Shown here: one piece after another, positions 4,722 through 8,744 of the stretch | Layout of the letters: each line of letters starts with the position of its first letter | How positions within the stretch are numbered: the stretch's first letter is position 1 | NCBI GenBank assembly: GCA_016840425.1 | Contig: JAEOSI010000062.1 | Span: forward strand, 1-10,193 | Length of the DNA: 10,193 nucleotides | Direction of reading: 5' to 3' | From: Candidatus Wukongarchaeum yapensis | GTDB lineage: Archaea > Asgardarchaeota > Wukongarchaeia > Wukongarchaeales > Wukongarchaeaceae | Translations under genes and position numbers: made by a program | Notes under the pieces: model-generated | The model's database searches: none | What the model saw: the letters and a program-made list of their open reading frames with translations, nothing else | Told to the model about the DNA's origin: nothing

Positions 4722-5825
4722 TTGGAAAAAATGTCAGAAGTGTTTATGGAAATTTTTCCGAAGTACAAGTCTTTGGAAAAGGCGAAGAATAGCTGGTGGA
4801 TTGAGAAAATCTTGCCGGACCATAGTAGGACTTTTATCGTGTTCGTTGTTTCGTTTTGTCTTGGTATATGGTTGATTGGTTATGCTATCGCTCTTTCTAG
4901 TGATGTTATTGAGGGTGTGGAATTCGAATACGCGGATCCTGTTAGTGACTATTTGCGCGATCGTGAGTGGCAGTATCAACCGTTTTATTTAGCGGTTCAT
5001 TTTGTGATTTTGAGGATGTTTGGAGTTGTGTACACGAGGAACTTTGAAACCACTATTTGTCTTCTTAAAGCTAAGCCTGAGGAGATAAGTCGCCATACTC
5101 GTTGGGTTTTTGGTCATGTATCAAATTTTGGAGCGTTTTTAGCGGCTGCTGGGTTCATTTACTATGATTATAGCGCGATGCTTGAGGAAGGTTTTGGCGC
5201 CTTAACCTCCTTAGACTTTTTGATCATGTTTGTATGGGGTCTTGAGCGGGTTATTCTTGGCTATGTGATCTGCCTGATGTTGGGCACGGTATTTCTTATC
5301 TGGAAGCTTTTGAGGAGTTATTACTATTCAGCTCCTGCTGATATTGTGCTCATGGAAAAAAGGTATAGGCCGTTTACGCATTTTGCTATGGAAGCTTCCT
5401 CGCTCGTACTTTTGTTTGCTTTGGTAGACGTTGTATATCTTTATTACGCGGGCTTTTGGTTGGCAGATTTTCTCGCTTTCATGGTGTTAATTTTCTTGGT
5501 GACTGCTAGTTTTTTGGTGAGTACTTGGATAATAAAGAGCGATTTGAAGGTAGAAGTAGAGGAGCAGCTTATGGAGTTCTATAAGGAGCTTGAAGCTGCA
5601 AAAAAAGGAGTAAGCTCTTTGGATCCGGAGATACCGAAAACAGATGCAAGATGGCTTGCAGGTAACATGGATCTCATCCTAGCATTCCTTAAAATAGATT
5701 ATCTTGAAGACCAATTTCGAACCATGGCAGCGAGCGATGCAAGAATGCTGGTTTTAAGGATGCTAATACCGATTGTTGGTATAATACCGAAACTGTTGGA
5801 AGAAGGCGGCTTCACAATATTTTAA
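4722..5825 (+). CDS. Multi-pass membrane protein of unknown function (about 7 helices); candidate 7TM ion-channel superfamily member
   Basis: 367-aa ORF with six clear hydrophobic segments, a long charged helix after TM6 (KSDLKVEVEEQLMEFYKELEAAKK) and a split C-terminal hydrophobic region. Start is the TTG at 4722 or the ATG at 4731. The CDS itself is well supported; the family call is an inference. Confidence 0.85.
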   Translation: MEKMSEVFMEIFPKYKSLEKAKNSWWIEKILPDHSRTFIVFVVSFCLGIWLIGYAIALSSDVIEGVEFEYADPVSDYLRDREWQYQPFYLAVHFVILRMFGVVYTRNFETTICLLKAKPEEISRHTRWVFGHVSNFGAFLAAAGFIYYDYSAMLEEGFGALTSLDFLIMFVWGLERVILGYVICLMLGTVFLIWKLLRSYYYSAPADIVLMEKRYRPFTHFAMEASSLVLLFALVDVVYLYYAGFWLADFLAFMVLIFLVTASFLVSTWIIKSDLKVEVEEQLMEFYKELEAAKKGVSSLDPEIPKTDARWLAGNMDLILAFLKIDYLEDQFRTMAASDARMLVLRMLIPIVGIIPKLLEEGGFTIF

Positions 5826-7247: not shown

Positions 7248-7326
7248 AAAAAATAAAAAAAGGGAGGGTCTAAAAAAATTGACCTCTTTACCTCCTAAAA
7301 GCAGTCATTTTGTTCTTTGTTTTTTC
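7248..7326. terminator. Bidirectional oligo-T terminator region between the convergent GGR and gelsolin genes
   Basis: Minus strand has T-tracts (plus-strand A-runs at 7248-7261 and 7272-7278); plus strand has TTTTGTTCTTTGTTTTTTT at about 7309-7325; a weak GGTC/GACC stem lies between them. Confidence 0.5.
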
Positions 7327-7914
7327 CTATTTTAGAAGTTCTTTAAATTTTGGCGGTTCTTCTTCACCTTCATATATGACGATCATTTGGGGCACGAATT
7401 TTCTCTCAGAATCAAGTTTTCGTCCGATACGACCTGCTTCAAACTTTTCCATAGAGCTAGCGTTGCGACCGATCCATACGTAGATGTTCAAACCCGAATC
7501 TAACACTAGCGCGGAATCACTGTTTAGAGATTCTCTCGAAAGCTCAACCTCTTCGAATTCTTCATGACCTATCGCCCGATAAAGCTTTGGCTTAAACTCT
7601 TCTATCCCTCCTTCTACGGTTTTTAAAAATCCTGGCGTTCCTCCAGACTTCACTTTTGGGGCACCGCCAAGCAACTCTATCAACTCTTCAGGCTCTTCGT
7701 TTTGTTCACAAGTAATAACGTGGGGGTAATCCTTTCGCTCCATATCCATCTTATTAGACAACCAAGCAGCCGTAAACTTTTCATCTATTGTAGACTCTTT
7801 GCCTCGCCATATGAAAATCGTTATTCCTGCATCAACCACATATACGTCGCCTTCATAAAATTCTGCTTCACTGATTTCTTCCAATTCACCGCCTTTTACA
7901 TGGAATATCTTCAC
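7327..7914 (-). CDS. Two-domain gelsolin-like protein (Asgard 2DGel type), paralogue A
   Basis: Domain 1 FYEGDVYVVD...IFIWRGKESTIDEKFTAA...MD...EQNEEP aligns by eye to gelsolin G1 (FFTGDAY...YWLGNECSQDESGAAA...LD...VQGFES). Linker KVKSGGTPGFLKTV resembles KYKKGGVASGFKHV. Domain 2 PKLYR...SLNSDSALVLD...IYVWIG...EKF...EGEEEPPKF resembles G2. GTG start with a GAGGCGG SD. Confidence 0.9.
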   Translation of the reverse strand: MKIFHVKGGELEEISEAEFYEGDVYVVDAGITIFIWRGKESTIDEKFTAAWLSNKMDMERKDYPHVITCEQNEEPEELIELLGGAPKVKSGGTPGFLKTVEGGIEEFKPKLYRAIGHEEFEEVELSRESLNSDSALVLDSGLNIYVWIGRNASSMEKFEAGRIGRKLDSERKFVPQMIVIYEGEEEPPKFKELLK

Positions 7915-7972
7915 AAAAAACCGCCTCTTAAAAAGAAACTTCCAAAAAATCGCTATATACAGACAGCTTTCC

Positions 7973-8560
7973 TTAACCTAAGAGCTCTTTAAATTTCGGC
8001 GACTCATCTTCGCCCTCGTGTATAACGATTACTTGAGGTGTAAATTTTCTCTCAGAATCAAGCTTCCGCCCGATACGACCTGCCTCAAACTTTTCCATAG
8101 CACTAGCACCAGAACCGATCCAAACATAGATGTTTAAACCATCGTCTAAAACAAAAGCATCATCACTGACTAAACTTGACCTTGCAAGGGGCACTTCCTC
8201 ATAGTTTTCAGGACCTATCGCCTTGTAAAGCTTTGGCTTAAACACTTCTTTCTCCACTTCTACATGTACTAAGAGCCCGGGGGTCCCTCCAGGCTTCACT
8301 TTTGGAGCACCACCAAGCAAATCTAACAACTCTTGCGGTTCGTCACCTTGAGTACACGCAACAACCTTGGGGTACCCACGTCTGTCCATATCTAGCTTGT
8401 TACTGAGCCAAGCACCTACGAATTTTTCATCAACAGTGCAATCTTTGCCTCGCCATATGAAAATTCGCATTCCATCGTCTACGACATATACATCGCCTTC
8501 GTAAAATTCTGCTTCACTAACTTCTTCTAAGTCGTCTTTAACAACATGGTATAGTTTCAT
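7973..8560 (-). CDS. Two-domain gelsolin-like protein (Asgard 2DGel type), paralogue B
   Basis: Same length as paralogue A and aligns without gaps; 139/195 identical by hand count (about 71%). Same gelsolin repeat motifs. ATG start with a GGAGTGG SD. Confidence 0.9.
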   Translation of the reverse strand: MKLYHVVKDDLEEVSEAEFYEGDVYVVDDGMRIFIWRGKDCTVDEKFVGAWLSNKLDMDRRGYPKVVACTQGDEPQELLDLLGGAPKVKPGGTPGLLVHVEVEKEVFKPKLYKAIGPENYEEVPLARSSLVSDDAFVLDDGLNIYVWIGSGASAMEKFEAGRIGRKLDSERKFTPQVIVIHEGEDESPKFKELLG

Positions 8561-8744
8561 AAAAACCCACTCCTTAGAAAGAACACGCTAAAAACAACCA
8601 TCATTGCTAGATGGTTCTTAACATGCTACGAAGTTTCTTAATAATATAATAAGTAAAAAGGGATATTTATGTTTCTCCTAGAAAATAAGAAAATAGTTTA
8701 AGTTCTTCGGAGTTTTGTATGGTTTCCTAGGGGGTTAGTGTTTA

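Follow-up and report, generated by a model that had tools for sequence, protein, structure and literature searches.

One- and two-domain gelsolins of Asgard archaea sever, cap and sequester actin, and the two-domain proteins (2DGels) are calcium-controlled (PMC7444086, PMC9433394); archaeal and eukaryotic actin regulation are connected by few links that can be approached by experiment, and the Asgard gelsolins are one of them. There are several gelsolin paralogues per Asgard genome, a situation described as 'functional diversification through paralogization' (PMC7444086, PMC9433394), and up to nine gelsolin homologues have been reported in one genome (2026, PMC13716822); the same paper found that five of the nine encoded by L. 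ossiferum co-precipitate with Lokiactin. Gelsolin paralogy in these archaea is therefore already well documented, while tandem gene order and four-domain forms are mentioned in neither PMC7444086 nor PMC9433394.

The Thor proteins 2DGel and 2DGel3 (PDB entries 7c2g and 7c2h; PMC7444086) are about 200 aa long, made up of two gelsolin domains without a C-terminal extension, and Thor genomes have several 2DGel paralogues. The 2DGels of Heimdall (7whf) and Loki (7whg), structurally solved in their actin-bound state, have the same two-domain core, and their severing, capping and sequestering activities are under calcium control (PMC9433394). Between the domains lies an LKKT-type WH2-like motif (Leu, two basic residues, then Thr or Val), which takes the form LRRV in Thor, LKHV or LRRT in Heimdall and LVDV in Loki (PMC9433394).

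Here we describe two adjacent 2DGel genes. The window, by which we mean the whole stretch of DNA that was analysed, is an entire contig (C23) of 10,193 bp from a MAG (G000) of 2.16 Mb that is 92% complete, and the pair comprises an upstream paralogue (UP, P0002) and a downstream paralogue (DN, P0001):

7973-8560, minus strand: UP, a two-domain gelsolin of 195 aa, with an ATG start; domain 1 at about residues 1-90, domain 2 at about residues 105-195
7327-7914, minus strand: DN, a two-domain gelsolin of 195 aa, with a GTG start

Both proteins find their best solved match in Thor 2DGel (34-36% identity; by sequence and, for P0001, by predicted fold), which they resemble in length, in the absence of a C-terminal extension, in having, by alignment, the type I and type II calcium residues of domain 1 and in having a candidate LKKT-like motif between the domains. 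They differ from it in belonging to another Asgard lineage, in being encoded by adjacent paralogues, and in the lack from DN of the type II Asp of domain 2. The Heimdall and Loki proteins, by contrast, carry C-terminal tails (284, 335 aa; a tail, or a linker and a zinc domain), whereas the window proteins end after domain 2. Eukaryotic gelsolin, CapG, severin and villin belong to the same repeat family (human gelsolin with E 1e-40, summed over domains), but have three or six domains in one chain, where the window has two separate two-domain genes. What is new in the present case is the age of the pair, the selection acting on it, its recurrence, its single-copy relatives, the Asp/Ser and linker-motif differences between the copies, and, elsewhere in the phylum, a second tandem pair in Sifarchaeia and a four-domain gelsolin. 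No new principle follows from the tandem order, from the variable presence of the second copy in congeners or from the Asp/Ser difference, though all three are useful details.

It is probable, in our view, that UP and DN are paralogous 2DGels that arose by tandem duplication in situ, and that both have been kept under purifying selection; they would be calcium-dependent actin regulators, probably with some division of labour.

The pair, its family and its host

The original prediction of two intact genes of 195 aa, about 71% identical without gaps and 58 bp apart, proved exact when open reading frames and BLASTP alignment were inspected: UP and DN share 138 of 194 residues (71%; no gaps; E 3e-104), lie head to tail on the minus strand without stops or frameshifts, and are separated by a spacer (7915-7972) of 58 bp. 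The rest of the contig encodes a K+ channel, ribosomal protein L15e, an aldehyde dehydrogenase, an SDR, a membrane protein, a geranylgeranyl reductase (GGR, the gene for which is convergent with DN) and a radical-SAM protein; these neighbours are unrelated housekeeping genes. An ORF of 367 aa between the SDR and GGR genes (window 4722-5825) has no Pfam match, and is kept in a congeneric MAG (G001, with 90% identity) and in related contigs. An Rfam scan of the window gave no RNA family.

That the two proteins are two-domain gelsolins, as had been claimed, is borne out by profile, by PDB sequence search and by predicted fold. The Pfam gelsolin profile (PF00626) matches twice in each protein (97 bits for P0001 and 86 bits for P0002; cut-off 21), each of the four domains scoring above this threshold, and a profile scan of the genome finds four separate gelsolin domain matches on the window contig. 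Against PDB sequences (phmmer), P0002 matches Thor 2DGel3 (7c2g/7c2h, E 7e-28), Heimdall 7whf and Loki 7whg, the E values for Asgard 2DGels ranging from 1e-25 to 1e-28; it aligns with the Asgard 2DGel chains across residues 1-190, and full-length gelsolins are matched too. For the fold comparison, P0001 was represented by an AF2 model built on an alignment of 35 sequences (mean pLDDT 85.7), and P0002 was assigned through sequence. The model of P0001 has two repeats, each made up of a beta-sheet and a long helix, and in a Foldseek search of the PDB the top places are taken by the four solved Asgard 2DGel-actin complexes (7c2g, 7c2h, 7whg and 7whf), with E values from 8e-20 (Thor 7c2g/7c2h) to 2e-17 and 31-36% identity; gelsolin, CapG, villin and adseverin of eukaryotes come next. 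The TM-scores are near 0.48 because the two domains are freely oriented. A gelsolin fold was thus found by both the HMM and the structure search, and the objection that the proteins might have no such fold therefore fails. The assignment of both proteins to the gelsolin family is secure.

The host had been taken to be an Asgard archaeon, and so it is; the genome has its own canonical actin (L006:1462-2583, 445 bits), together with two longer actin-related frames and a profilin, and the contig bears an archaeal ribosomal protein L15e and a geranylgeranyl reductase. Judged by their sequences, UP and DN would bind actin and respond to calcium. There is also a ProGel-like one-domain gelsolin of 87-99 aa (C148:1035-1229, L005:999-1262), which with the pair makes three gelsolin-domain genes in a MAG that is 92% complete. 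Gelsolin matches are present in 38 of the 41 genomes of the phylum, many of which have at least two dispersed 2DGels. The host's order, and even its class, is represented by only three species in the genome collection, to which searches at both ranks added none, and the submitters' labels therefore call for caution: an orthologue of UP at 93% identity is on a contig titled Candidatus Hodarchaeota archaeon, and farther relatives have proteins recorded under Hodarchaeota or Heimdallarchaeota. Outside the host's order, the 2DGels nearest to the pair are those of Ca. Atabeyarchaeum.

Recurrence, junction and age of the pair

The same pair is found beside the same GGR gene in at least eight independent contigs from other assemblies and samples, and is intact in all the contigs examined. 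Fifteen studies, on marine sediment, seawater, marsh, mangrove and other sediments, have runs in which the 1.5-kb stretch containing the pair was detected, and in three of those metagenome runs the spacer is bridged by DNA contigs. The bridging contigs and the eight or more independent ones rule out an assembly artefact or collapsed strains. In one metatranscriptome library, small low-depth contigs were found at 7640-7848 (93% identity) and 8105-8374 (97%); these come from a related strain, may be DNA carry-over, and are not counted as expression.

At the syntenic site in the congeneric G001, and in the close-relative contigs L046 and L047, a single gene directly adjoins the GGR gene. These single-copy genes are of the UP type, being 93-95% identical to P0002 and about 71% identical to P0001. 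No second 2DGel was found anywhere in G001 (87% complete), nor was a free-standing DN-type gene found elsewhere.

Nei-Gojobori estimates of dN/dS are 0.07-0.25 in all comparisons, and therefore both copies are constrained by purifying selection. The notion that one copy is decaying or functionless, or that the pair is artefactual, seems to us exceedingly improbable: beyond the GTG start of DN and the faster evolution of its protein nothing speaks for it, whereas the frames are open and full-length in all alleles, the GTG and an RBS-like motif before it are conserved (the GTG is present in the allele of another, otherwise near-identical population, L039), the dN/dS of DN is 0.2-0.25, independent assemblies and bridging contigs agree on the arrangement, and 71% identity is far too low for collapsed strains. 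The claim that the pair is a retained tandem duplicate has thus held up, with intact copies, purifying selection and recurrent contigs all in its favour.

UP and DN have the marks of a tandem gene duplicate: they are adjacent on the same strand with no intervening gene, their flanks are homologous, and the junction between them has a trailer-leader form. The relevant flanking features are:

8561-8660, minus strand: UP upstream region, with GGAG 8 nt before the ATG, a hairpin and, some 85 nt upstream, the AT-rich box TTATTATATTATTAAG
7915-7972, minus strand: spacer, with a short, diverged UP trailer ending in T6, the TATA-like TGTATATAG, a leader of about 30 nt, and GAGG before the GTG
7248-7326, minus strand: DN trailer, from the DN stop to the convergent GGR gene, with two T-runs

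The 30 or so nucleotides before the two start codons, which make up a leader that includes the RBS-like motif, are homologous (TTCTTTCTAAGGAGTGGGTTTTTATG versus TTCTTTTTAAGAGGCGGTTTTTTGTG), and the TATA-like TGTATATAG is about 40 nt before the DN start; from their sequences, the spacer motifs may act as terminator, promoter and RBS. Beyond the leader, the upstream region shared with the single-copy genomes, in which 8561-8660 is kept, is found before UP only, and the full trailer is found after DN only; in the single-copy genomes a DN-type trailer lies directly 3' of the UP-type gene. Since the spacer thus consists of a trailer with T6 and then a leader, it is the junction expected for duplication of a unit of about 650 bp, and the event would have been an in-situ tandem duplication of the gene with its leader of about 30 nt and a short trailer. 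The hairpin upstream of UP has a 7-bp stem (AACCATC/GATGGTT) followed by T5 and folds with a z-score of -2.7; L046 conserves it, and in G001 it is weakened. Either a leader or attenuator element or, in this divergent intergenic region, a terminator-like signal is conceivable.

The DN allele of the window differs from that of L039 mainly in one tract:

7424-7623, minus strand: mosaic patch within DN where domain 2 begins, with 71-77% identity to the L039 allele

Outside this patch, the G000 and L039 populations are 93-100% identical across about 4 kb. Between the two DN alleles, dS is 1.2 in codons 101-165 and 0.08 in the remainder. The L039 patch is closer to UP-type genes (dS 0.53-0.73) than is the rest of the L039 DN gene (about 1.2), and the G000 allele is uniformly distant from UP-type genes. 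The simplest reading is that the tract was partly converted towards the UP type and then exchanged between populations.

The pair is not recent, because dS between UP and DN is about 1 (0.9-1.2), compared with 0.3-0.4 (0.31-0.43) between UP and its single-copy orthologues; for four flanking genes, dS between G000 and G001 is 0.38-0.88. The phylogeny that had been suggested as a check was run on 38 2DGels from 25 genera, and indicates a lineage-specific duplication, later than the divergence from the closest other family of the order. In this protein tree the DN genes (100/98) and the UP plus single-copy genes (99/98) form sister clades, outside both of which lies the gene of the same-order MAG, G002. 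An AU test on the proteins speaks against a clade uniting UP with DN of the tandem genomes (p 0.034), a group that was named after the tree had been seen; with DNA (six close genes and an outgroup) the same grouping gave p 0.39, which leaves the order of duplication and speciation undecided.

Could the duplication instead have taken place recently, within the tandem-bearing sublineage, the single-copy state being ancestral and a redundant DN diverging fast? The single-copy genomes do show leader, gene and trailer exactly as an unduplicated ancestor would, the DNA-based AU test does not reject a clade of UP and DN, and outside the patch DN has a dN of 0.037 against 0.012 for UP, so that its protein has lately evolved about three times faster. 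Synonymous divergence does not fit such a history, however: the dS of UP against DN is some threefold that of UP against the single-copy genes, and outside the patch the two copies have equal recent dS values (0.08 for DN, 0.10 for UP), which gives no hint that synonymous sites change faster in DN. Nor is a recent origin easily reconciled with the 99/98 support for UP plus single-copy genes and the protein-based AU result, or with a DN that is under purifying selection and intact in every contig examined. On balance we regard a recent origin as unlikely. Most likely, the duplication is younger than the divergence from G002 and no younger than that of the sampled congeners, with DN lost later in the single-copy lines. 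The event would therefore belong within a small Asgard lineage, purifying selection having then maintained both copies. The single-copy genes are UP-like through their final codon, yet have a DN-type trailer; if there was loss, the deletion therefore ended almost exactly at the two stop codons, which is possible but particular.

A different kind of origin would make DN a xenologue, the gene of a farther member of the same lineage having recombined in beside the resident gene to give a pseudo-paralogous tandem. It would agree with the failure to find DN-type genes in G001 and L046/L047 (in which only the UP type occupies the syntenic site), with a dS between UP and DN (about 1) greater than the divergence of the flanking genes between congeners, and with the mosaic patch, from which it follows that recombination with divergent alleles does occur at this locus. 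But the leaders of DN and UP are homologous, the junction is a simple succession of trailer and leader, as in a tandem duplication, and no mobile-element gene or repeat was found there; moreover, DN is sister to the UP clade, closer than any other sampled lineage, and a free-standing DN-type gene has not come to light. We think this quite improbable, and return to in-situ duplication in what follows.

Calcium ligands, linker motif and a possible division of labour

The sites at which the copies differ in the residues of most functional interest are:

8159-8161, minus strand: Asp134 of UP
7513-7515, minus strand: Ser134 of DN
8261-8272, minus strand: WH2-like motif LVHV of UP (residues 97-100)
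7615-7626, minus strand: WH2-like motif LKTV of DN

Residue equivalences were taken from alignment to human gelsolin and to the 38-member family, the equivalent ligand positions in eukaryotic gelsolins being G65/D66/E97/D109 and D187/E209. In domain 1 both copies have G22/D23 and E45 (type II; human G65/D66 and E97) and D57 (type I; human D109), and in domain 2 both keep E156 and D168. They part company at position 134, which is Asp in UP and in the single-copy genes and Ser in both DN alleles, in spite of the mosaic patch; Asp or Glu is present here in 28 of the 38 family members. By alignment this position corresponds to human gelsolin Asp187, which is the domain-2 calcium ligand that is mutated in Finnish-type gelsolin amyloidosis, and several PDB titles among the Foldseek matches mention D187N/Y. 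In DN, Asp133, beside Ser134, might be an alternative calcium ligand.

The linker motif varies between UP and DN (LVHV and LKTV), as it does between the Heimdall (LKHV/LRRT) and Loki (LVDV) lineages. Each of the window motifs retains the Leu and a final Val, but has only one basic residue, and the calcium-binding Asp of the Loki motif is present in neither.

By analogy with their relatives, UP and DN should each cap, sever or sequester actin in a calcium-dependent manner. The job is probably divided between them, UP having every signature calcium ligand and DN being without the type II Asp of domain 2, such that DN likely differs in its calcium response or in the actin contact made by domain 2; we infer this functional difference from the Asp/Ser134 and linker-motif differences. 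A more elaborate possibility, which we put forward tentatively and with more doubt than belief, is a two-gelsolin module in which UP provides fully calcium-gated severing and capping, and DN, with altered or no calcium dependence in domain 2, is for example a constitutive side-binder or sequesterer, with a more basic WH2-like motif. If so, actin turnover in the archaeon would be tuned through the ratio between two small proteins instead of through one multi-domain protein, and close relatives with and without DN would amount to a natural experiment on what a second gelsolin contributes. Whatever the fate of that idea, the pair provides close natural variants (71% identical and of equal length) that differ at two sites which crystal structures show to matter, and the single-copy sister genomes are natural controls, making a clean system for the gain or loss of calcium control by gelsolin domains.

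Multiplication of gelsolin domains elsewhere in the phylum

The original prediction went on to view the pair as a snapshot of a family on its way to multi-domain gelsolins. This is not supported: the pair is lineage-specific, old (dS about 1), and absent or lost in close relatives. Nor did the proposed check for fused four-domain orthologues in relatives reveal any, no fused form of the pair being found in 41 related genomes, and a search with P0002 for longer proteins yielded, besides eukaryotic proteins, just Loki-type 2DGels that have C-terminal extensions. There is no evidence that the window pair is ancestral to, or heading for, the fused eukaryotic type of protein, and it leaves the picture of the origin of eukaryotic multi-domain gelsolins unchanged.

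The sole four-domain Asgard gelsolin that we met does not speak for a gene-fusion route either. It is P0012, a protein of 477 aa encoded in another Asgard MAG (G010; C128, L034:1239-2672), with four Pfam gelsolin repeats in the arrangement D1-D2-D2'-D2'' and an acidic linker of EPEP repeats after domain 2. Identity between its domains 3 and 4 is 82%, and they match domain 2 at 50% and domain 1 at 32% identity, from which it follows that the protein grew by serial repetition of domain 2 inside the gene, and not by the fusion of two 2DGel genes. P0012 appears to be a singleton, no close relative having been found in the protein database; it would be a natural example of serial multiplication of a single domain.

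Finally in this section, tandem duplication of a 2DGel gene has evidently occurred more than once, as there is a comparable arrangement in Sifarchaeia (Ca. Borrarchaeum; WP_287582355.1 and WP_287582353.1, of 202 and 199 aa), seen in two genomes:

L036:4321-4929 and 4982-5581 (G040:C4): Sifarchaeia tandem pair
L030:323-1060 and 1114-1713 (G020): Sifarchaeia tandem pair, second genome

Like the window pair, it consists of head-to-tail genes, in this case 52 bp apart, each encoding a two-domain gelsolin of about 200 aa. Unlike UP and DN, however, the Sifarchaeia genes form a clade of their own (four genes, 100/99), and a common origin of the two pairs is rejected (AU test, p ~1e-115), the duplications being independent. 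Both of the Sifarchaeia copies have Asn at the domain-2 calcium-ligand position.
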